Below are positions 174 through 44,670 of a stretch of DNA of 62,706 bases, one piece after another; positions within the stretch are counted from its first letter, which is position 1, and each line of letters starts with the position of its first letter. Source of the DNA: Minisyncoccota bacterium (GTDB taxonomy: Bacteria > Patescibacteriota > Minisyncoccia > JAHISW01 > Tagabacteraceae). The position numbers and the translations under genes were made by a program. The stretch is from contig JAQTSC010000004.1 of assembly GCA_028711505.1 (NCBI GenBank), positions 1 to 62,706 of the forward strand, given 5' to 3'. The notes below the pieces were generated by a model. It ran no database searches. It had not been told where the DNA came from and was given only the letters and a program-made list of their open reading frames with translations.

Positions 174-2720
174 TTAATCGGTAAATTTCAAAGTGATATT
201 GTATTCACTTTTATTTTTTACTTTGTCATAAACCACCAGTTTTAATGTTTTCGTGCCAGAAGAAAAAATAGAATCGTTTAAATTAAAAGAAAATCCAAAG
301 GGGTAAGACGAGGCTGAACCAAGGAATTTTTCATTGAGATAAAAATCTATTTGCCCCAAGGAAAATTTACTACGGTCAACAACACTGATGTTTACGGTTT
401 GGTTTTTTGAAAAAGATGAATTTTCCAGCGGGCTTAAAATTGTTATTTCCGGAGCGTTTTCCTGTTTGTGTATGTCATCATAATCTTTTGGGATATTGTT
501 TTCCGTTTCTTCCGCTATTTTTTGAATTTCCACCCAATTTCTTATCGGTGTTTCCCATAAAATAAATTGAGGGTCTTCCCCGGGGTTCGATGGTTTTTCT
601 CCAAGTGGATTGTTTTTATCTACCCAATAAAGGATTGAATGAATTTGCGTTAAAACTTTTATTTCCTTCATTTCTTCGGGTGTGTTGTTTGTCGCGAGTT
701 TTCCCGTTATTTTGTCGACAATATAAATTATGCCTCCGCGCCAATTTCCCGTTAATACGGGTTTCAATTCGCCTTCCCCTGTTCTTTCCGGTTTCAAAAA
801 ATCTTCTTTTGTTGTTTGCTCAAGCGCTTTTTTCATAAATGCGTTCCACATGGGAGCCGCGATGAACCCCGCCACCTTTTTTTCCATGGAGCTGTTGTCG
901 TTGTTGCCCACCCATACTCCGGCGGCGAAATTGGGCGTATAGCCTATTACCCAGGCGTCGCGGTAGTCGTTTGTTGTTCCTGTTTTTGCCGCAACCTGTC
1001 TTTCGGGAAAATAAAGGTAAGAACTTTCACCAAAAGCCGGAGTTCTGGCATTGTTGTCCGAGAGCACGTCGTTTATCATACGCGCTATTTTTTCTTCCAA
1101 CACGCGTTTTGGTTTTGAGTTGAATTTTTCCAAAATATCTCCTTCGTTATCTTTTATTTCCAAAATCGGCGTCAGTGAATTTTTTACGCCATCGTTTGCA
1201 AAAACCGAATAAGCGCCGGTCATTTCAAGGAGTTTAACTTCCCCGCCCCCAAGAACCAGCGTGAGCCCGTATCTTGAGGGGTCTCCCAAGGTGTTTATTC
1301 CAAGATCTTTGGCTGTTGCAAGAGAGTCTTTCAACCCGGCAAGATAAAGCGTTTTTACCGCCGGAACATTTATTGATTGTGCCAGCGCGTCTCTTAGACT
1401 GATTGGGCCCCTGTAAACATGGTCATAGTTTTCCGGATGATAACAAACCTCGGATTTTACTCCCGGTTTAGGGGTTCCGTTCGGGTTGCACAAAGAGCTG
1501 AATTCGGTGAATAAATCAAAAACAACAGTTTTGTCTATATACCCTTTTTTAAAGGCGGTGGCATAAACAAATGGTTTAAAAGAAGAACCGGGTTGTCTTC
1601 CTTTTTGGTAAGCGGTTACATTTACGCTTGGCTCAAACTTGCAGTTTACTCCCGGGGTGCAGTTTTCAGGAAGAGGATCCGTGTTCCAGTCTCTTGAACC
1701 TACCATCACGAGAATTTGCCCTGTTTTTGGGTCAACAGCGGTGAGCCCTGCGTTGTACGCGTTGAATTTGACCTGGTTCTCCTCCGCGTATTTTTTTACT
1801 ATTTTTTCGGCTTCTCGCTGTAAGTCCAAATCAAGCGTCGTTATAACTCTTAGCCCCCCTTGTTCAACAATGTCTTTCCCGTATTTTTCTTCAAGATAGC
1901 TTTTTACGAACATTACGAAATGGGGCGCTTGTATTCCTTTTTCTTCGGCGGTGAGAAATGCAATTTTTTCAGTTTTGGCTTTTTCGTATTCTTCTTCTTC
2001 AATAAAATTCAGATTAAGCATTCTTTGAAGAACTAAATCTTTTCTTTTTTCAAGGTCGTCGACGTGGACGCCGTAAGGAGAATAATAAGAAGGCGCTTGA
2101 GGAAGCGCGGCAAGATATGCCGCTTCCGCAAGCGTGAGGTCTTTTACTGATTTTCCCAGAAAAGAATTTGCCGCGGCCTCAATTCCGTAATTGCTTCCTC
2201 CATAGGGAATTTCATTCAGATATAAAGTGAGAATTTGGTCTTTGGAAAGCGTTTTTTCCAGTTTTAACGCGATAAAAAGCTCTTTTATTTTTCTGGTAAA
2301 GGTTTTTTCTCCGGTAAGAAAAGAGTTTTTCGCGAGTTGCTGCGTTATTGTGGACCCTCCCTGTTTTAATTCTCCGGACATTATATCCACAAAAAGCGCG
2401 CGCAATATTCCGATCGGACTTATTCCTTTATGCTGGTAAAATTCCGAATCTTCTATTGCCACCGTGGCGTTTTTTATGTTTCGCGGAATGTCTTCATAGG
2501 GGACAACCGTTCTTTTTATATTCTCATGTATGTCATAAAGAACGTTTTTCCCCGTTTTGTCGTAGATTTTGGTGGATTCAGCAACTTTTCGTTGATCAAA
2601 AGTGCTATAGTCGGGGATAGCTAAATTTTCAAACCACCTGACCAAAAGAAGCCCCGAAGCTATCGCGGCCAGTATGACGAGAATAGGCAAAAATTTTACT
2701 ATTTTTCTTTTTCGTTTCAT
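174..2720 (-). CDS. class A penicillin-binding protein (glycosyltransferase + transpeptidase, PBP1A type)
   Basis: 848-aa ORF with N-terminal membrane anchor. GT51 motifs EDSEFYQHKG and RKIKE. Transpeptidase SSFKPF (SxxK) and KTGTT motifs. Extra C-terminal extension. Confidence 0.9.
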   Translation of the reverse strand: MKRKRKIVKFLPILVILAAIASGLLLVRWFENLAIPDYSTFDQRKVAESTKIYDKTGKNVLYDIHENIKRTVVPYEDIPRNIKNATVAIEDSEFYQHKGISPIGILRALFVDIMSGELKQGGSTITQQLAKNSFLTGEKTFTRKIKELFIALKLEKTLSKDQILTLYLNEIPYGGSNYGIEAAANSFLGKSVKDLTLAEAAYLAALPQAPSYYSPYGVHVDDLEKRKDLVLQRMLNLNFIEEEEYEKAKTEKIAFLTAEEKGIQAPHFVMFVKSYLEEKYGKDIVEQGGLRVITTLDLDLQREAEKIVKKYAEENQVKFNAYNAGLTAVDPKTGQILVMVGSRDWNTDPLPENCTPGVNCKFEPSVNVTAYQKGRQPGSSFKPFVYATAFKKGYIDKTVVFDLFTEFSSLCNPNGTPKPGVKSEVCYHPENYDHVYRGPISLRDALAQSINVPAVKTLYLAGLKDSLATAKDLGINTLGDPSRYGLTLVLGGGEVKLLEMTGAYSVFANDGVKNSLTPILEIKDNEGDILEKFNSKPKRVLEEKIARMINDVLSDNNARTPAFGESSYLYFPERQVAAKTGTTNDYRDAWVIGYTPNFAAGVWVGNNDNSSMEKKVAGFIAAPMWNAFMKKALEQTTKEDFLKPERTGEGELKPVLTGNWRGGIIYIVDKITGKLATNNTPEEMKEIKVLTQIHSILYWVDKNNPLGEKPSNPGEDPQFILWETPIRNWVEIQKIAEETENNIPKDYDDIHKQENAPEITILSPLENSSFSKNQTVNISVVDRSKFSLGQIDFYLNEKFLGSASSYPFGFSFNLNDSIFSSGTKTLKLVVYDKVKNKSEYNITLKFTD

Positions 2721-2895
2721 TTAGAACTTTATCTAATTAATCTAGCCTAAAAAAAAGCCTTTTTCAACTCCAGACATGAAGATAGTAAAGTGTTTGAGCA
2801 TTTCAATTTTTGGATTTTTATATTGAGGTGAAGCCCCTAAGCTGCCGCAACCGCCGCCTTTGATTTAACGGATATTTTTTGCTAACCTGTTTTAT

Positions 2896-4089
2896 ATGGC
2901 TAAAGCGGACAGAGATAAAATAAAACAGATTTTGGAACGGAATGTTGTTGAGGTTATAGAAAAAAACGACTTGGAAAACCTGCTTAATTCCGGTAAAAAA
3001 TTACGAATTAAACTCGGCATAGACCCGACGGGCCCTCGCCTCCACCTTGGGCGCGCCATTTCTTTAAGAAAACTCAGAAATTTTCAGGAAGCCGGCCATA
3101 AAATAGTTTTGATAATTGGAGATTTTACCGCACTTGTCGGAGACGCTTCGGACAAACAATCGGCGCGCAGCCAACTCACAAAAGAGCAGATAAAAAGGAA
3201 CATGAAGGATTATAAAAAACAGATTGGGAAGATTTTGGATATAAAGAAAACGGAATTTCATTACAACAGCAAATGGCTCGCTAAATTGAAATTTGAAGAC
3301 GTTTTGCGCATTGCTTCCCTCTTTACCGTCCATCAGCTTATAGATAGAAGAAATTTTAAAGAAAGATTTGAAGCGGGCAAAATTATCGGGTTTCAGGAAT
3401 TTATGTATCCTCTTATGCAGGGATATGACTCCGTGGCGATAAAAGCGGATGTTGAAATTGGCGGAACCGACCAGCTTTTTAATCTTATGGCGGGAAGAAA
3501 GCTCCAGGAATTCTACGGGCAGAAACCTCAAAATATAATGACTCTGGAAATGCTTGACGGGCTTGATGGACAAAAAATGTCCACTTCGCAGGGAAACGTG
3601 ATAAACATAACCGATACGCCGGACGATATGTTTGGGAAAATCATGTCTATGAGAGACGAGATGATAATGGGATATTTTAAAACAACGACGGATATTTCCG
3701 ATGAAAGGCTGGGCTCGATTAAAGCAGGTCTTGATTCGGGCAGTTTAAATCCGCTTGAAGCGAAAAAAGATTTAGCTTTTGAAATAGTCAGAATGTACCA
3801 CGATTCCGCAAAAGCGGAGCGCGCCAAAGAAAAATTTGAAAGCGTTTTTCAAAAAAAAGAATTATCGGCGGATAGTTTTGATGAAATAAAAGTTCAACAG
3901 GGCGAAGAGCTCAGTGATATTAGCGTAAAACGCGGACTTGTCGCTTCGTTATCTTCTTTTAGAAGACTTATAAAATCCGGCTCGATTGATTTTGAAGGAG
4001 AAGCGATAAAAGATGTGCATTTCAGAATAAAAAAATCCGGAGTTGTCCGGATAGGAAAAAAGATCTTCGTAAAATTGATTGTCGGCTAA
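2896..4089 (+). CDS. tyrS: tyrosyl-tRNA synthetase
   Basis: 397-aa ORF with class I HIGH-type motif (PRLHLGR) and KMSTS (KMSKS-type) motif. C-terminal S4-like tail. Confidence 0.85.
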   Translation: MAKADRDKIKQILERNVVEVIEKNDLENLLNSGKKLRIKLGIDPTGPRLHLGRAISLRKLRNFQEAGHKIVLIIGDFTALVGDASDKQSARSQLTKEQIKRNMKDYKKQIGKILDIKKTEFHYNSKWLAKLKFEDVLRIASLFTVHQLIDRRNFKERFEAGKIIGFQEFMYPLMQGYDSVAIKADVEIGGTDQLFNLMAGRKLQEFYGQKPQNIMTLEMLDGLDGQKMSTSQGNVINITDTPDDMFGKIMSMRDEMIMGYFKTTTDISDERLGSIKAGLDSGSLNPLEAKKDLAFEIVRMYHDSAKAERAKEKFESVFQKKELSADSFDEIKVQQGEELSDISVKRGLVASLSSFRRLIKSGSIDFEGEAIKDVHFRIKKSGVVRIGKKIFVKLIVG

Positions 4090-38664: not shown

Positions 38665-38937
38665 ATGAACAAAGCATCTATTGTTGAAAACGTTGCCGCC
38701 ATGACCGCCGGAAGCAAAGCGGAAGCCGAAAGAATTGTTGATGGCATTTTTGACAGCATCGTTTCCACATTGAAAAAAGGAGAAGAAGTTTCCATTGCCG
38801 GATTTGGTATTTTTGCCGTAAAAGCAAGAGCTGCTCGTCAGGCAAGAAACCCGAAGACTGGTGAGATGGTCCAAGTAGCGGCTACTAAAGTCCCGAAATT
38901 CAGGGCTTCAAAAGCGCTAAAGGACGCCGTTAAATAG
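38665..38937 (+). CDS. hup: HU family DNA-binding protein
   Basis: 90 aa with the GFGIF.V..RAAR.ARNPKTGE signature. Confidence 0.93.
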   Translation: MNKASIVENVAAMTAGSKAEAERIVDGIFDSIVSTLKKGEEVSIAGFGIFAVKARAARQARNPKTGEMVQVAATKVPKFRASKALKDAVK

Positions 38938-39089: not shown

Positions 39090-39356
39090 TTATCTGTTCA
39101 AGAGACTGGAAGTAAATTTAGTCAATGCCATTGTTTGGTTTTTCGCGATGCATTCTTTGCAAATATGGCCATTAACATTTCGTTTGCCTGTTCCGTATTC
39201 GTAAATCTCAATAGCATACGCGAAATGTCTTGTTCCTCCTTCTCCCCCGCATCCTTCTCTCTCGCAAATCGCGCATTTTGAAAGATGCTTTGTTTCGTCC
39301 TCACAAAAATCGCAGGTCTGCACTAAAACTTCCCGTAACTCTTTTCTTTCAGCCAT
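39090..39356 (-). CDS. small Cys-rich (zinc-ribbon-like) hypothetical protein
   Basis: 88 aa with CDFC...CAIC...C...CKEC. AAGGAGGG Shine-Dalgarno sequence. Start overlaps the stop of the upstream gene by 8 nt. Confidence 0.6.
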   Translation of the reverse strand: MAERKELREVLVQTCDFCEDETKHLSKCAICEREGCGGEGGTRHFAYAIEIYEYGTGKRNVNGHICKECIAKNQTMALTKFTSSLLNR

Positions 39357-39609
39357 GTCTTAGTCCCTCCTTTAGGCTTGCTTTCCGGATTTTTTCTTTG
39401 GCATAATTTTTGGAAGAAAAAATTTTAAGCATTTCATCTACAATTTCCTGAGCCGTTTCTTTGCTTCCTTCGCAAAAGGCCCATCCACTGTCAATACATG
39501 TTAAATGGCTTAAGTTTTTCTTGATTATACCGGCGATTTTTTTCTTCAGTTTTTTAATACCAGGCGGTTTATTTTTAATCAAAACCTCCTTTTCTCTCAA
39601 TCTTGCCAT
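39349..39609 (-). CDS. small basic hypothetical protein
   Basis: 86 aa with an AAGGAGGG Shine-Dalgarno sequence. Translationally coupled to the Cys-rich ORF. Confidence 0.55.
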   Translation of the reverse strand: MARLREKEVLIKNKPPGIKKLKKKIAGIIKKNLSHLTCIDSGWAFCEGSKETAQEIVDEMLKIFSSKNYAKEKIRKASLKEGLRHG

Positions 39610-39719
39610 ATTGCCCTCCTTTTTTAGAGGTCAAGAATTCAAAATCTGCTTTATTCTTAACATGACAGATTTTTCCGGTCAAACGAGAATTACTTAATTT
39701 TAACTTGCAATTTCCTACA

Positions 39720-39793
39720 TGGTGCGGGATGGGAGAATCGAACTCCCGCCCAGAGTTTGGAAAACTCTTATTCTGCCATTAAACTAATCCCGC
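39720..39793 (-). tRNA. tRNA-Gly (anticodon TCC), CCA encoded
   Basis: GCGGGATTAGTTTAATGGCAGAAT..., anticodon loop TTTCCAA, acceptor 3' ATCCCGC-A-CCA. Confidence 0.9.
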
Positions 39794-39990
39794 GCGTTGT
39801 TTCATGTGAACCCCCCTAGAAGTTCAATGGAATGAACCTTTATTAATTCTTATTTATTTTGACCATGGGGACAAGCTGTGAATAAATATGGAAAAAATCT
39901 GTGTTATCTTATAATACCTTTGTTTATAGTGTCCATTAGAAATGTCCGATATACACAATTTGTTCATTACTTCCTCTTCATTTTCGTTTT

Positions 39991-40168
39991 TCGCAATTGC
40001 TGAACGAAGCGCGAACCTTTTTTGAACAAAATCCTGACTGATTGCCGCGCTTCGCGCGGCAGAAACTGAACGCTCGGGCGGGCAAAAAGGAAGGGGGTTG
40101 GGGGGGGAAGGAATTTTTGCCCGCCCTCGCTTTCCGACTCCGATTTTTCCGCCGCCGCCGAATTTCGT
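39991..40168. repeat. inverted repeat A (left copy, 178 nt)
   Basis: Reverse complement of 41980-42158, checked base by base. The only difference is G8 here versus C9 in the partner. Contains hairpins GCCGCGC-TTC-GCGCGGC and GGGCGGGCAAAAA-(25 nt purine loop)-TTTTTGCCCGCCC. Confidence 0.97.
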
Positions 40169-40197
40169 GCCAACTTAGTTGGCACGCCGCCTATATT

Positions 40198-40626
40198 TCA
40201 ACTCTTGGTATTTCTAATAGAACTTTTCATTCTATAAAATTCCTCTTTGTTTTCCTGGGGCTCGTTTAATGAATTATAGTCAATTAATATTTCTTCTCCT
40301 CCCTTTATATCCTTTGCAGCATAATACCATTTATATTTTTTTTGAAACACATTTGGACTTTCGGAATGATTTATATACCAGCCAATTTCCATGTGTCCAA
40401 AATCATTTGGGCAAAGTAATTTTTCCCCTCGATCAACACAATATCCCCGAAGAATCACCGGAATTTTTTCTTTGCTAACTAAACGAGCTCTATCAACCTC
40501 GTCTTCAATTTGGTTTCCCCAGAGCCTCAAACGTGTGCCTTTTATAATATCATGAATCGTGAAAACACCGATACCATGCTTCGTTGGTTTTAACACAAAT
40601 GAAAATTCGGTAGTTTTATTCTTCAT
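40198..40626 (-). CDS. SET-domain protein (putative protein lysine methyltransferase)
   Basis: 142 aa with HGIGVFT (GxG), YINHSESPN (NHSxxPN) and GEEILIDY (ELxxDY) SET signatures. Confidence 0.75.
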   Translation of the reverse strand: MKNKTTEFSFVLKPTKHGIGVFTIHDIIKGTRLRLWGNQIEDEVDRARLVSKEKIPVILRGYCVDRGEKLLCPNDFGHMEIGWYINHSESPNVFQKKYKWYYAAKDIKGGEEILIDYNSLNEPQENKEEFYRMKSSIRNTKS

Positions 40627-40638
40627 AAGAAATTTTTA

Positions 40639-41613
40639 TTACTTTCTTTTAAATATTCCAAGCTTTGCCTCCTCCTGTTGATGATATTCAAAATAGCTAC
40701 CACCCAATACTTCACCTCGCTTTTCATTTTCTTCTTTTTCTGTGTTATTCGCTTTTTCTAATACAAAATCAAATCCAAGTCGTTCGGCCGTTTCCTTTAT
40801 TTGTTCGATAATTTTTGAATCTTTATACAGCTGGTGTGTTTCCTCGAGAGTTGTTTTTTCGGTATATTCCTCATCATATGCCTCCGGATCCATATTTTTA
40901 ACTCGCTTTTCTTCTGCTATCTCTTCCGATGTCAAATCCGAAACTTTCTTCCAGACAAACTCGTTTTCTTCAAAATCAAATTTCCCCTTCCATTTAGTTG
41001 CTTTATAAATGGAAATAGGATAAATATATGCCGCTCGATCCGTAACTCGCAATATTTCGGGCAATTCTTTTTCTAAAAATGTTTTTAAATCTAGAGAGTG
41101 TTTTGGCACCGAGTCAGAAACAATAGCCACGCTTAATGCCCTATCTTTTAGGGGAAGTTTGGCAAGATCAGCCACTATATACTTTGATTTCGCTTTTTCA
41201 ATCACCGCTTGTATAGTTTCCGTATAATCTATAAATGGATTCTCAAATCCCATATTTCTTTCAAGTTCATTGGGCAATTTTTTTGCAGGATATTTATAAA
41301 TATCATTCAATGGACCTAATTGAAATTTTCTCTTAATAACCCCGCTGTACCGGGTTTGATTGGCTTCGTGCATCAAATCAATCGGAACCACATCGATGCC
41401 TCTTAACTCACCTTCCGCAGGAATTGTGGAAAAACTGGCACCCAAATCGCCAATCGGTTTTCCGGTTTTTTTATAAATCTCAGAAAGATTTTGCCAGCTC
41501 AAATTTAGATGCGGAAAAAGCTCGAAACTGCTGTCATTGCCAAGCCATCTAAATTCTTCTTTGTTTTCTCTCTTTTCTACATATTCCGGTAACTTTTCAT
41601 AAAATTTAGGCAT
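40639..41613 (-). CDS. hypothetical protein, possibly a divergent class I SAM methyltransferase fold with an acidic C-terminal region
   Basis: 324 aa with IGDLGAS (motif I-like), VVPIDL (acidic post-I) and ADLAKLPLKDRALSVAIVSDSV (motif II/III-like). Degenerate, so a weak call. Confidence 0.35.
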   Translation of the reverse strand: MPKFYEKLPEYVEKRENKEEFRWLGNDSSFELFPHLNLSWQNLSEIYKKTGKPIGDLGASFSTIPAEGELRGIDVVPIDLMHEANQTRYSGVIKRKFQLGPLNDIYKYPAKKLPNELERNMGFENPFIDYTETIQAVIEKAKSKYIVADLAKLPLKDRALSVAIVSDSVPKHSLDLKTFLEKELPEILRVTDRAAYIYPISIYKATKWKGKFDFEENEFVWKKVSDLTSEEIAEEKRVKNMDPEAYDEEYTEKTTLEETHQLYKDSKIIEQIKETAERLGFDFVLEKANNTEKEENEKRGEVLGGSYFEYHQQEEAKLGIFKRK

Positions 41614-41617
41614 AAAT

Positions 41618-41824
41618 TTATTTTAACAATTCATCCGCCGAAACTCCAAGAGCCTTAGCTAATTTCTGAATTGTTGCAAGCGTTGGGTTTCTTTTTCCAT
41701 TTTCAATCCCGCTGATATAAGCTCGGTGAACTTCTAATTTGCGAGAGATTGCGCCCTGCGACAATTTTTTAGCGGTTCTAATCCGCTTTAGATTTTGACC
41801 AAGTTTTGTTGATATTTCGACCAT
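41618..41824 (-). CDS. XRE-family helix-turn-helix regulator
   Basis: 68 aa with LKRIRTAKKLSQGAISRKLEVHRAYISGIENGKRNPTLATIQKLAKAL. Confidence 0.85.
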   Translation of the reverse strand: MVEISTKLGQNLKRIRTAKKLSQGAISRKLEVHRAYISGIENGKRNPTLATIQKLAKALGVSADELLK

Positions 41825-41979
41825 AAGATTATTTACATTGTATCTCTTGTTGCATTATTAGGCAATGTTGTATTATAATGATACATATGAATAAGGGGAG
41901 CAAATTTGTTGTGTGCGCACGGGTGGGTGGGGCAAACACAACCCCTTTTTTCTTGGCGGCGCATTTCGCAAAGCGAAAT

Positions 41980-42158
41980 ACGAAATTCGGCGGCGGCGGA
42001 AAAATCGGAGTCGGAAAGCGAGGGCGGGCAAAAATTCCTTCCCCCCCCCAACCCCCTTCCTTTTTGCCCGCCCGAGCGTTCAGTTTCTGCCGCGCGAAGC
42101 GCGGCAATCAGTCAGGATTTTGTTCAAAAAAGGTTCGCGCTTCGTTCAGCAATTGCGA
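41980..42158. repeat. inverted repeat A' (right copy, 179 nt)
   Basis: Reverse complement of 39991-40168 with one extra C in the homopolymer (42041-42049). Confidence 0.97.
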
Positions 42159-42313
42159 CCAACTTAAACTTTTTTCAAATTCAGAAGCGTTTTGTTGCTC
42201 GCTCGCCCCGCCTTCGGCGGGTCTCGCTTCGCAAAAAGCCCTGTATTTCGGAATTAAATCGTAAGGTCGGACAAATTCAAATTCAGTTTTTCGGGAAATC
42301 AAACGGCGGTTCG
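42156..42313. repeat. inverted repeat B' (158 nt), an inverted copy of the recombinase gene 3' end
   Basis: Exact reverse complement of 43836-43993. After a 33-nt indel the repeat resumes for 14 nt (42347-42360 versus 43821-43834). Confidence 0.97.
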
Positions 42314-42466
42314 GAATTGCGAAACAATTCACAAATGAAATTTGTATCCAATTTTTTCCGTTTTTGCCAAAGGCAAAAAGACAAAGCAAGTTTTTTAATC
42401 CCGCGCTTTTGCGCCGTAGGCGCAATTGCCTAAGGTGACAATTATTAACTTAATGAGGTAAACACT

Positions 42467-44110
42467 ATGAAAATAAAATTTTTTCTCTACGCAAGGAAAT
42501 CTACCGAAGATGAAGAAAGACAAGTGATGAGCATTGAAGCACAATTAGCGGAGTTGGCGGAATTTGCCAAGCGGGAAAACATAGAAATTGCCGAAACTTT
42601 TATTGAGAGCAAAAGCGCAAAGAAACCGGGCCGAGAAATTTTTAACGAGATGATGAGCAAGGTTCACGAGAGCAAAGAGCCAATCGGCTTAATTGCGTGG
42701 CACCCCGACCGCTTGGCAAGAAATTCCGTTGACGGCGGACAAATAATTTACAGCATAGACATCGGCAAGATCGTTTCTTTGCGCTTTCCCACTTTTTGGT
42801 TTGAGCCAACTCCGCAAGGTTTGTTTATGCTTCAAGTCGCCTTTGGCCAGTCAAAATATTATTCCGACAATTTGTCGGAAAATGTTAAGCGCGGGATTAG
42901 GCAAAAACTCAGGCGGGGCGAATGGCCGACACTTGCGCCGTTCGGCTATGTGAATAATCCAAAGACGAGAACCATTGAACCCGAACCGACAAAATCAAGG
43001 TGTGTTACCAAAGCGTTTGAGGAATTCGCGCAAGGCCGGCATACTTTAGAATCTTTAGGCCAACGCCTGAGTTTTTGGGGCGTGGTGAGCGGAACCGGAA
43101 AACCACTTTGTAAAGCGACACTCCAACGAATGCTGACAAACAAAGTGTATCTCGGTTTAATCGTTCATAACGGCGAAACTTATGAGGGCGGTTTTCCGGC
43201 AATTGTTTCCCGAGCGACTTTTGAAGCCGTCCAAAAAGTATTAAAACAGCGAGCAAGACCTCGCAAAAGCAAAAAACGGCATAACTTCCCATTTGTCGGA
43301 CTTTTAACTTGTGGCGAGTGTGGTGGAGCCATTACCGCGCAATTTGCCCACGGACACGGAGGAACCTATCGCTATTATCGTTGCACCAAAAAGCTCGGTA
43401 AATGTTCGCAACGATATTTGCGCGAGGACTTGCTCGCTGAACAATTAAAATTACGGCTTCAAAATGTCGCTCTTTGCGACGACTGGGCGGAGAAGATGAA
43501 AACTCAAGTTGATGTTTGGGAAAAAGATAACGCCCAGTCATCGCAATCTTTTGCCCAAAATCTTGAGGAAAAAATCAAAGAAACGGAAACGAAACTTGAT
43601 AAACTGGTCAACGCTTTCTTGGACGGCTCTATTGAAAAAGAAACTTACCTTGTCAAAAAAGACGAACTCATCAAAACAAAAACAGACCTTAACAAAAGAA
43701 AATCTGATTTTGGGCGAAAGGGAAACAATTGGATTGAACCTTTGCGGGAATGGATAAAGACTGCTCACCACGCCGAAAAACTTGCTTTGTCCAATGATTT
43801 TTATGAAATAAAATCATTGGCGGAAAAAATTGGAACGAACCGCCGTTTGATTTCCCGAAAAACTGAATTTGAATTTGTCCGACCTTACGATTTAATTCCG
43901 AAATACAGGGCTTTTTGCGAAGCGAGACCCGCCGAAGGCGGGGCGAGCGAGCAACAAAACGCTTCTGAATTTGAAAAAAGTTTAAGTTGGTCGGGGCGCC
44001 GAGACTTGAACTCGGACTACAACCTCCCAAAGGTCGCGTGCTGCCATTACACTACGCCCCGATTATGGCGCCACCATCATCCAGCTGGCCCGTTTCATAT
44101 GAAACGCTAA
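42467..44110 (+). CDS. large serine recombinase (true C-terminus uncertain; last ~39 codons read through tRNA-Pro)
   Basis: YARKSTEDEERQVMSIEAQ catalytic-Ser N-terminus, recombinase domain, Zn ribbon CGECGG...YYRCTKKLGKC, coiled coil, and a TGAGGT Shine-Dalgarno sequence. The ORF stays open through repeat B and the antisense of tRNA-Pro. Confidence 0.85.
   Translation: MKIKFFLYARKSTEDEERQVMSIEAQLAELAEFAKRENIEIAETFIESKSAKKPGREIFNEMMSKVHESKEPIGLIAWHPDRLARNSVDGGQIIYSIDIGKIVSLRFPTFWFEPTPQGLFMLQVAFGQSKYYSDNLSENVKRGIRQKLRRGEWPTLAPFGYVNNPKTRTIEPEPTKSRCVTKAFEEFAQGRHTLESLGQRLSFWGVVSGTGKPLCKATLQRMLTNKVYLGLIVHNGETYEGGFPAIVSRATFEAVQKVLKQRARPRKSKKRHNFPFVGLLTCGECGGAITAQFAHGHGGTYRYYRCTKKLGKCSQRYLREDLLAEQLKLRLQNVALCDDWAEKMKTQVDVWEKDNAQSSQSFAQNLEEKIKETETKLDKLVNAFLDGSIEKETYLVKKDELIKTKTDLNKRKSDFGRKGNNWIEPLREWIKTAHHAEKLALSNDFYEIKSLAEKIGTNRRLISRKTEFEFVRPYDLIPKYRAFCEARPAEGGASEQQNASEFEKSLSWSGRRDLNSDYNLPKVACCHYTTPRLWRHHHPAGPFHMKR
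43836..43993. repeat. inverted repeat B (158 nt)
   Basis: See B'. Its last 3 nt (TCG) are the discriminator plus the last two acceptor bases of tRNA-Pro (minus strand). Confidence 0.97.
43991..44061 (-). tRNA. tRNA-Pro (anticodon TGG)
   Basis: CGGGGCGTAGTGTAATGGCAGCAC..., anticodon loop TTTGGGA, T-loop TTCAAGT, acceptor 3' CGCCCCG-A. Confidence 0.88.
44091..44106. repeat. 16-bp perfect palindrome CGTTTCATATGAAACG
   Basis: Read directly. Lies between the cobA-like stop and tRNA-Pro. Confidence 0.9.
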
Positions 44111-44670
44111 AATTCAATTCCCTTTCTCGCTAAAATTCCTTTTTTGAAAGGGTGCTTTTTGTTTTCAAAAAAAGTAATGTAATCAGCTTTAGAAAAAATT
44201 TTTTTGTTCGCTTTTCTCCCTGTTAAAACAAGTTCGGTCCTATCAGACTTGTCTTTTATAATGTCCAATATCTTTTGGACATTTACAAGACCCATAAATT
44301 CGCTAACGCATATTTCATCCAAAACCACCAAGTCATATTTTCCCGAACAAACCACTTTTTTAGCTTCTTTCGTTGCTTTTTCAGCTTCTTTTTTATCAAT
44401 TTCTTTTGCCTCCCCTTTTCTTATAAACTCCAGTTTCCCGAATTGCTTGATGTCTATTTTACCCAGTTTTTTCAAGGATTTTATTTCTCCGTAAGGGTAT
44501 TTCCCTTTCATAAACTGAATTAAACAGCATTTTAAGTCTTGTCCGGCCGCTCTTGTTAAAAGGCCTATTCCGGCGCTTGTTTTGCCCTTTCCGTCTCCGG
44601 TGTAGACATGAACAAGTCCTGTTTTGGTTTTTGCGTTTTTCCAAGCGGGTCTTTGTTTCATGTGAACCAT
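44107..44670 (-). CDS. cob(I)yrinic acid a,c-diamide adenosyltransferase-like (CobA/BtuR family) P-loop protein
   Basis: 187 aa with VYTGDGKGKTSAGIGLLTRAAG...IQFMKG...YGE pattern. Start overlaps the yraN stop (TAATG). Confidence 0.7.
   Translation of the reverse strand: MVHMKQRPAWKNAKTKTGLVHVYTGDGKGKTSAGIGLLTRAAGQDLKCCLIQFMKGKYPYGEIKSLKKLGKIDIKQFGKLEFIRKGEAKEIDKKEAEKATKEAKKVVCSGKYDLVVLDEICVSEFMGLVNVQKILDIIKDKSDRTELVLTGRKANKKIFSKADYITFFENKKHPFKKGILARKGIEF

Follow-up and report, generated by a model that had tools for sequence, protein, structure and literature searches.

The window analyzed here is the whole of contig JAQTSC010000004.1 (62.7 kb; 62,706 nucleotides, nt) from assembly GCA_028711505.1 of a Minisyncoccota bacterium, whose 605-kb genome is 99.7% complete. 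On its minus strand, three small genes lie side by side, encoding an XRE regulator of 68 amino acids (aa), a 324-aa protein with the predicted fold of a class I S-adenosylmethionine (SAM)-dependent methyltransferase, and a 142-aa minimal SET-domain protein (Table 1). Next to them is the gene of a large serine recombinase, which runs into a tRNA-Pro gene. We consider it likely that the region 39991–43993 is an integrative element of ~4.0 kb residing at the 3' end of tRNA-Pro(tgg), with the SET and 324-aa genes as accessory cargo. An earlier interpretation made from the letters of the DNA (the sequence-only reading) had described the trio as three tightly packed genes in a segment framed by repeat arms A and A'. 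Both parts of that description hold. The open reading frame (ORF) coordinates agree, with 4 nt between the XRE and 324-aa genes and 12 nt between the 324-aa and SET genes, and the arms are 178-nt inverted repeats with 99% identity. The word "divergent", which had been applied to the 324-aa protein, is correct in the sense of sequence only, because all three genes run the same way. The G+C content of the cargo is 0.34–0.37, as against 0.42–0.48 in the flanks.

Table 1. Coordinates of the genes, repeat arms and tRNAs at the locus
Feature	Position	Strand	Basis or remark
68-aa XRE/HTH_3 regulator	41824..41618	minus	HTH_3 E 2.7e-19 (Pfam)
324-aa protein with predicted class I SAM-methyltransferase fold, unnamed family, probable cargo	41613..40639	minus	no Pfam match; AF2 + Foldseek + VIA
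142-aa minimal SET-domain protein, predicted protein-lysine methyltransferase, probable cargo	40626..40198	minus	PF00856 39.2 bits
Large serine recombinase ORF, 547 codons	42467..44110	plus	Resolvase, Recombinase, Zn_ribbon_recom; PHROG integrase E 1.1e-77
Repeat arm A, outer left end of element	39991..40168		inverted match to A', 99%
Repeat arm A', inverted copy of A	41980..42158		with B, intact internal attP-like junction, inverted
Repeat arm B, perfect inverted copy of B'	42156..42313		158 nt, 100%; overlaps A' by 3-nt core
Repeat arm B', right end of element	43836..43993		inside recombinase ORF 3' end; ends with tRNA CCA + 3-nt core (43988-43993)
Spacer between A' and XRE gene, 155 nt	41825..41979	minus	promoter-like site inside
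tRNA-Pro(tgg), probable integration target	43988..44061	minus	ARAGORN; Rfam 60.8 bits; 3' end abuts B'
tRNA-Gly(tcc), chromosomal left flank, outside element	39720..39793	minus	ARAGORN; Rfam tRNA 66.6 bits

The boundaries of the element are set by two nested pairs of inverted repeats, and for both pairs (A/A' and B/B') each arm sequence occurs at only two places in the genome. Three junctions share a 3-nt core, TCG, at 39991–39993, 43991–43993 and 42156–42158. Flank/A is the left junction and resembles attL; B'/tRNA-Pro is the right junction and resembles attR; and the B'/A junction, read on the minus strand where A' meets B, is internal and resembles attP. Joining the sequence left of 39991 with that from 43991 onward would restore tRNA-Pro, with tRNA-Gly 187 nt beyond it. 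The expected signature of attachment (att) sites, in which attL and attR recombine to attP and attB over a short shared core, is present at the sequence level. Read in this way, the tRNA-Pro gene before insertion would not have encoded its CCA, which the end of B' would supply. An Rfam scan of 39500–44300 returned the two tRNAs and nothing else.

In the recombinase itself, R10 and the catalytic S12 are invariant in 19/19 aligned sequences. Conservation within the family ends near codon 510 ("...W-S-G"), and the codons beyond are antisense of tRNA-Pro. No stop codon of its own ends the ORF ahead of the tRNA, and about 40 codons run antisense through it. Homologous recombinases at other loci (L144–L172) read through other tRNAs in their turn, namely those for Lys, Gly, Ser, Ala, Leu, Gln, Arg, Ile, Asn and Glu. 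Because these ORFs run antisense into tRNAs, the database proteins of the family carry tRNA-derived tails. Elsewhere in the genome (G000:C2:218772-219959) there is another large serine recombinase gene, which is only distantly related (27% identity).

The same arrangement recurs widely. Among 8000 candidates scored, 6466 recombinase homologues were found at E <= 1e-10; the best 120 of these are 68–95% identical, and those with names come from metagenome-assembled genomes (MAGs) of Patescibacteria, Omnitrophota, Elusimicrobia and Acidobacteria. At least one copy (E <= 1e-100) was present in 67 of 300 other genomes of the class, often at contig ends. In 25 of 29 loci a convergent tRNA lies where the conserved part of the ORF ends, or at most 450 nt away, and in all 28 loci that could be tested the 3' region of the recombinase gene recurs upstream of it in inverted orientation (41–149 nt, 86–100% identity), as in the B/B' pair. 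An A/A'-type pair surrounds the adjacent arc in 7 of 11 elements (10 extended loci), and the junction triplets share a core of 4–6 nt in each of the four other elements examined (L173, L174, L176 and L182). In another metagenome, a recombinase of 94% identity (P0126) continues through B' into A-like sequence and there matches the minus-strand ORF 42425..42108; the B'/A junction therefore exists behind a full-length recombinase gene elsewhere. The serine recombinase, the att-like junctions and the recurrence at tRNAs bear out the earlier suggestion that the segment is recombinase-associated and mobile.

In curated collections of phages and plasmids, the recombinase had no relative above 30% identity, and viral contigs gave two partial matches. 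In one contig (L177; G256:C11, 4458–9739), two elements of the family stand side by side, each with its own tRNA (Val/Ala in one, Ser in the other), and one of them carries type III restriction-modification cargo. Many contigs of related genomes (G054, G121, G207, G244, G040, G288 and others) stop within the B arm, 150–460 nt before the start of the recombinase gene. In such MAGs, assemblies seem to break time and again because of this perfect inverted repeat.

What travels in the cargo arc differs from element to element. An XRE homologue divergent from the recombinase was found in 9 of the 14 loci with enough upstream sequence to be testable, and in 7 of the 10 extended loci; in all seven sister elements with a detectable XRE gene, it has the same orientation, adjoining A' and pointing away from the recombinase. 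Downstream of it are a type III Mod gene in L175, a DNA methylase gene and a type III Res gene in L177, an AAA_15 ATPase gene and HsdS in L181, two HAD hydrolase genes in L173, and genes of no recognised kind in L174, L176 and L182. Restriction-modification parts are thus found in three of the seven sister cargo arcs, and the best PADLOC match of the XRE protein of the window is a restriction-modification control protein (E 4.5e-18). XRE, the first gene of the cargo arc, belongs to the conserved backbone of the element family. The proposal that it serves as a dedicated switch for two methyltransferases must be given up, as it is kept as a backbone gene in sister elements with other cargo downstream.

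In the spacer before the XRE gene, a consensus scan, in which the count of sites was not above chance, picked out a promoter-like site at 41865–41837 (TTGCCT-17-TACAAT). The spacer stretch 41907–41978 is 94% identical to its counterpart in sister element L159 (blastn). More broadly, the inner half of arm A together with the spacer (40071–40168 and 41907–42078) is 88–94% identical to positions 1034–1202 of L159 (G169), and the recombinases of the two elements are only 50% identical. Within the inner part of arm A (40068–40134) there is also a 13-bp G+C-rich stem that encloses a C- or G-rich loop; RNA folding of inner arm A gave z-scores of 0.24 and -1.59, which do not support a structured RNA.

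The sequence-only reading had called the pairing of two putative methyltransferases under an XRE switch unusual, and would have counted its absence as a trio from other genomes as a refutation. In the loci sampled, that is the outcome: none of the 9 loci with homologues of the 324-aa protein holds a SET gene, an XRE gene or a related recombinase, none of the 7 loci with close SET orthologues (stretches of 8–12.5 kb) holds XRE or a 324-aa homologue, and the trio is present in none of the 29 loci with related recombinases. The nine loci of the 324-aa family are one Uhrbacteria contig and eight metagenome contigs, three of the latter longer than 7 kb; in the long ones the gene is flanked either by RpoD and an NYN-domain gene or by NusA/DUF559 and ClpP. 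No further copy turned up with its family profile in 400 genomes of the class and 400 of the phylum, nor with the single protein in 60 relatives. The neighbors of the SET orthologues differ at all seven loci: one adjoins a different serine recombinase (36% identity) and phage-like genes, two lie directly downstream of a tRNA, and one is beside a toxin-antitoxin-like pair. These seven loci have no direct or inverted repeats of 30 nt or longer, so the seven copies do not reside in this kind of element. The named homologues of the 324-aa protein, the SET protein and the recombinase include proteins from MAGs of Parcubacteria, Uhrbacteria and the "Patescibacteria group". The trio is real, but it is variable cargo of a mobile element and no conserved three-gene system, and the pairing of SET with the 324-aa protein is a one-off.

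Taken by itself, the SET protein is readily recognized. The PF00856 match (E 1e-9; cut-off 22.4 bits) spans residues 18–118 and covers the profile from 1 to 105 of 105. An alignment that took in 36 of the 56 cluster sequences of the family has G18, G20, N86, H87, S88, N92, E111, E112 and Y117 invariant in 36/36 members, so that the GxG and NHSxxPN signatures, the catalytic Tyr (Y117) of the E-x-x-x-D-Y motif and the motifs of the SAM pocket are all retained, as the sequence-only reading had it. The family consists of stand-alone proteins of ~130 aa; the 55 further clusters all have PF00856, and for some members the name "SET domain-containing protein" is already used by their sources. The closest homologues (P0070–P0076) are 64–73% identical, and distant relatives (26–49% identity) occur on at least 91 viral contigs. 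Contrary to the view that SET genes are uncommon in bacteria, they are not rare in this lineage, since the family profile matches 63 of 400 other genomes of the class at E <= 1e-8, seven of them at E <= 1e-40. A literature search on the SET domain and Patescibacteria turned up no paper, which does not prove that none exists.

The AlphaFold2 (AF2) model of the SET protein has a mean predicted local distance difference test score (pLDDT) of 84.5, with the C-terminal helix (124–139) predicted at lower confidence. In Foldseek its best match is vSET of Paramecium bursaria chlorella virus 1 (3kma; E 4.7e-7, template modelling (TM) score 0.68 by target, 22% identity), followed by MLL1, SETD8 and S. 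pombe Set7; among those listed of the 304 matches at E <= 1e-3, all are SET-domain proteins. By motifs and model it is a canonical minimal SET domain whose predicted structure is nearest to viral vSET. It shares with vSET the format of a bare SET domain of ~120–140 residues with GxG, NHSxxPN and a C-terminal catalytic Tyr, and differs in its low identity, in having a predicted helix in place of the Cys-rich post-SET region, and in being encoded on a bacterial mobile element instead of by a eukaryotic virus. Legionella LegAS4/RomA and Chlamydia NUE have the same catalytic domain family, but they are larger, secreted proteins with targeting or ankyrin regions, whereas the SET protein here has no extra domain. 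The top match among PDB sequences, Crov588 (E 1.1e-5), was disregarded as a set of weak matches to a repeat protein. The SET protein is likely to be catalytically active as a predicted protein-lysine methyltransferase.

The 324-aa protein is a harder case. It has no match in Pfam, NCBIfam, PHROG or PADLOC, nor in phage, plasmid or viral-contig collections. Twenty-six homologues were found in 5.8 billion clusters, and 48 representatives at E <= 1e-3 among 1.84 billion; none is named, and the closest (P0002–P0005) are 58–63% identical. Since a profile search of the PDB was empty, a comparison of folds was required. The AF2 model on the family alignment has a pLDDT of 86.7 and a predicted TM score of 0.85. 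Foldseek found 162 PDB chains at E <= 1e-3, and among those listed, all are class I SAM-dependent methyltransferases. The best alignment with VIA-align is to 2pxx (Z 12.2, root-mean-square deviation 3.7, 172 residues); Z values of 11–12 go with 170–200 aligned residues over model positions ~10–324, and the 50 matches listed are all methyltransferases. Its neighbors in the ESM Atlas are Methyltransf_11 clusters.

The family has several conserved motifs. Strand 1 ends in G55-D-L-G58, followed by A-S-F-S, with G58 and S62 conserved at 90% or more; Asp79, at the end of strand 2, is conserved to the same degree; D149-L-A-K-L-P and an invariant D157 precede strand 4; and D167-x-x-P-K-H-S, with D167, P170, K171 and S173 invariant, follows it. 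The Methyltransf_11/25 enzymes (2pxx, 1xxl, 7pd7, 1ve3) likewise have the seven-stranded Rossmann-like fold, the acidic residue after strand 2 and the "D..LP...D" pattern before strand 4. The 324-aa protein departs from them in a ~60-residue helical insertion after strand 2, in Glu-rich insertions before the last strands, in its G-A-S-F-S loop and invariant D-x-x-P-K-H-S, and in having no profile match at threshold. Its Glu-rich residues (~224–317) are modelled as helices and strands, mostly at high confidence (10-residue block means of 79–97), and the last strand (318–323) is conserved and belongs to the methyltransferase sheet. The sequence-only reading was therefore right about the fold and its partly degenerate motifs, and wrong about a "long acidic tail", as the Glu-rich parts are insertions with modelled structure.

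Four results speak against a methyltransferase assignment. The family profile had 0 matches in the PDB at E <= 10, and no methyltransferase family was reached by profile; sub-threshold matches to Methyltransf_11/25 were seen in only 2 of the 37 distant relatives scanned; the TM scores by query are low (0.24–0.40), which results from the large insertions; and the glycine loop for SAM is degenerate (G-A-S-F-S), with the second and third glycines of GxGxG replaced. On the models, we regard the class I SAM-methyltransferase fold as supported, and the protein as a predicted class I (Methyltransf_11-like) methyltransferase of an unnamed, rare family, a branch of a known superfamily. The protein may well bind SAM and methylate some substrate, although we are less sure of this than of the activity of the SET protein.

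The public gene call for the 324-aa protein (P0001) is 268 aa long, starting at residue 57 and thereby losing strand 1; because the family conserves the N-terminal 56 residues, the 324-aa reading is the right one. In the Uhrbacteria contig (L014, 2224–3170), the homologue is divided into two overlapping ORFs (2224–2421 and 2367–3170), probably by a frameshift or a sequencing error.

Independent evidence for the state of the locus comes from public metagenomes, for which Logan contigs, not raw reads, were examined. The locus is best represented in a run from a landfill metagenome, which may be the source sample. There, one contig spans 40147–41934 without a difference at a depth of 12.5, and the flanks have depths of 13.7 and 13.9; the cargo depth being so close to these, the cargo is single-copy and integrated. 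Another contig (39721–40020) bridges the flank into A, and a third (43964–44586) bridges B' into tRNA-Pro and the next gene. Summed depths reach 868–1735 in the A and A' bins and 60–190 in the recombinase bins, against ~13x for the genome, which indicates that many related elements in the community share the A/A' and recombinase sequences. In run X2, two weak joints were seen (40098 to 42127, side 22; 42152 to 43987, side 30, depth ~7), which may come from related community elements; we draw nothing from them. Left of the element, the minus strand at 39090–39609, between the gene for HU (38665–38937) and tRNA-Gly, has two small ORFs (88 and 86 aa) without a Pfam match, of which the 88-aa one is Cys-rich with CxxC pairs.

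The repeats, the three junctions and the recurrence with different tRNAs and cargo can be read directly in the genomes. A recombinase arc lies between B and B', and a cargo arc with the XRE, 324-aa and SET genes between A and A'. A'B is an inverted, intact copy of the B'/A junction. In the mechanism that we propose, B'/A would be the attP of the free circle. This circle would have carried two attP-like junctions in inverted orientation and would have been opened at one of the two, and the nesting of A/A' and B/B' would be due to the internal inverted copy. Circles divided into two arcs by an inverted repeat have an analogue in the yeast 2-micron plasmid. The recombinase would integrate and excise the element at the core, while XRE, in the manner of a restriction-modification control protein, may regulate a leftward XRE-324-SET operon from the 155-nt spacer. 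The SET and 324-aa genes would have been picked up as accessory cargo by this copy of the element, and the targets of their products are most likely proteins or small molecules within the cell that carries it.

There are also observations that do not favor the integrative element as we propose it. We found no empty tRNA-Pro site, the CobA-like neighbor and tRNA-Pro not being located in five genomes of the same family, and the circular form of the window element was not seen among the Logan contigs. XRE was not detected in 5 of the 14 testable loci. The public contigs break at A, A', B and B', and no listed joint changes strand; as a consequence of these breaks, the orientation that the assembly gives to each arc is without independent confirmation.

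Compared with known elements, the recombinase has the Resolvase, Recombinase and zinc-ribbon integrase composition of the large-serine-recombinase elements (phage integrases, SCC Ccr, XisF). The integrated copy differs from these in keeping an internal, inverted, intact attP-like junction with two nested inverted-repeat pairs, and in the lack of a stop in the recombinase ORF before the tRNA. Full-text literature searches yielded no description of such a two-arc, internal-attP architecture, which is not proof of its absence. A resemblance to tycheposons can also be noted: according to a preprint (bioRxiv 10.1101/2020.12.28.424599), these insert at tRNA 3' ends, are small, and have variable cargo that includes defence genes. 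By the count given there, 910 of 937 tycheposons and related elements use tyrosine recombinases, and a replication module is often present in tycheposons; the element here has a serine recombinase and no replication gene in its 4.0 kb. It can be placed among the large-serine-recombinase integrative elements as a new variant, and SET and the 324-aa protein each add a new member to a superfamily already known.

A bolder form of this explanation would make the cassette an exchangeable arc, and the elements themselves an undescribed two-arc serine-recombinase family with a wide distribution in the Candidate Phyla Radiation and in other mainly metagenomic phyla. The internal inverted attP would let the recombinase integrate by way of either copy and swap or flip cargo arcs, as a cassette exchange occurring in nature; inner arm A, with its 88–95% identity between elements whose recombinases share only 50%, would be a shared docking module, and SET and the 324-aa protein would be a horizontally spread protein-modification payload. 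We offer this tentatively, as a possibility with the odds against it.

Another potential explanation is that the two methyltransferases form one module under a control-protein-like XRE, placed in a restriction-modification slot and serving protective or anti-restriction modification or a new defence or counter-defence pair. The PADLOC match of XRE, the restriction-modification parts in sister arcs and the tight gaps between the genes could all be taken in this sense, and XRE does resemble the C proteins of restriction-modification systems, being a single HTH_3 domain of 68 aa that precedes restriction-modification genes in sister elements. However, the arc in the window has no nuclease, DNA methylase or other effector, and it is in L175 and L177 that the regulator adjoins restriction-modification genes. 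Neither protein matches a PADLOC model or a DNA-methyltransferase family, the 324-aa protein has small-molecule, peptide and generic Methyltransf_11 enzymes as its structural neighbors, and the two families do not co-occur elsewhere, as the loci of each have shown. It is doubtful that SET and the 324-aa protein act in one pathway at all, and the module is if anything a little more unlikely than that.

The sequence-only reading had also raised the idea that the SET protein acts as an effector, perhaps together with the 324-aa protein, and methylates host chromatin or nucleoid proteins, or the cell's own HU. Secreted effectors are indeed among the studied bacterial SET proteins (review PMC3980110), the SET protein has marginal similarity to LegAS4 (E 0.042 by sequence; NCBIfam E 9.5e-4, far below its cut-off), and the HU gene is, as had been pointed out, near the SET gene, at a distance of 1.26 kb. 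This closeness is incidental: the HU gene is not part of the element but lies on the far side of tRNA-Gly, and it is near the cassette because the position of the element is dictated by tRNA-Pro. The SET orthologues occur in seven different contexts with no secretion genes noted alongside, and the 142-aa protein has little beyond the bare catalytic domain. The presence of SET-like genes in so many genomes of the class (63/400) suits an ordinary cellular enzyme. We consider an effector role very unlikely. Least probable by a small step is an invertible, phase-variable segment in which A/A' recombination flips the XRE-324-SET genes relative to an outside promoter, for although the cargo does lie between long inverted repeats next to a recombinase gene, the promoter-like site and XRE are both inside the arc, so that a flip would not separate them, all seven sister elements with XRE show one orientation, and the duplicated attP-like junction accounts for the repeats.

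As it was originally written, the finding of a methyltransferase cassette would change little. What we have instead are, on the one hand, a family of 324-aa proteins that is confidently folded and conserved in its motifs and has no profile in Pfam, NCBIfam, PHROGs or PADLOC, and on the other, an integrative element whose architecture is unusual yet reproducible and accounts for many contig breaks in MAGs. The natural attP/attB pairs of its recombinases can be read straight from genomes. For the organisms themselves, with genomes of ~0.6 Mb, the element family shows a route by which restriction-modification and other accessory genes are gained.

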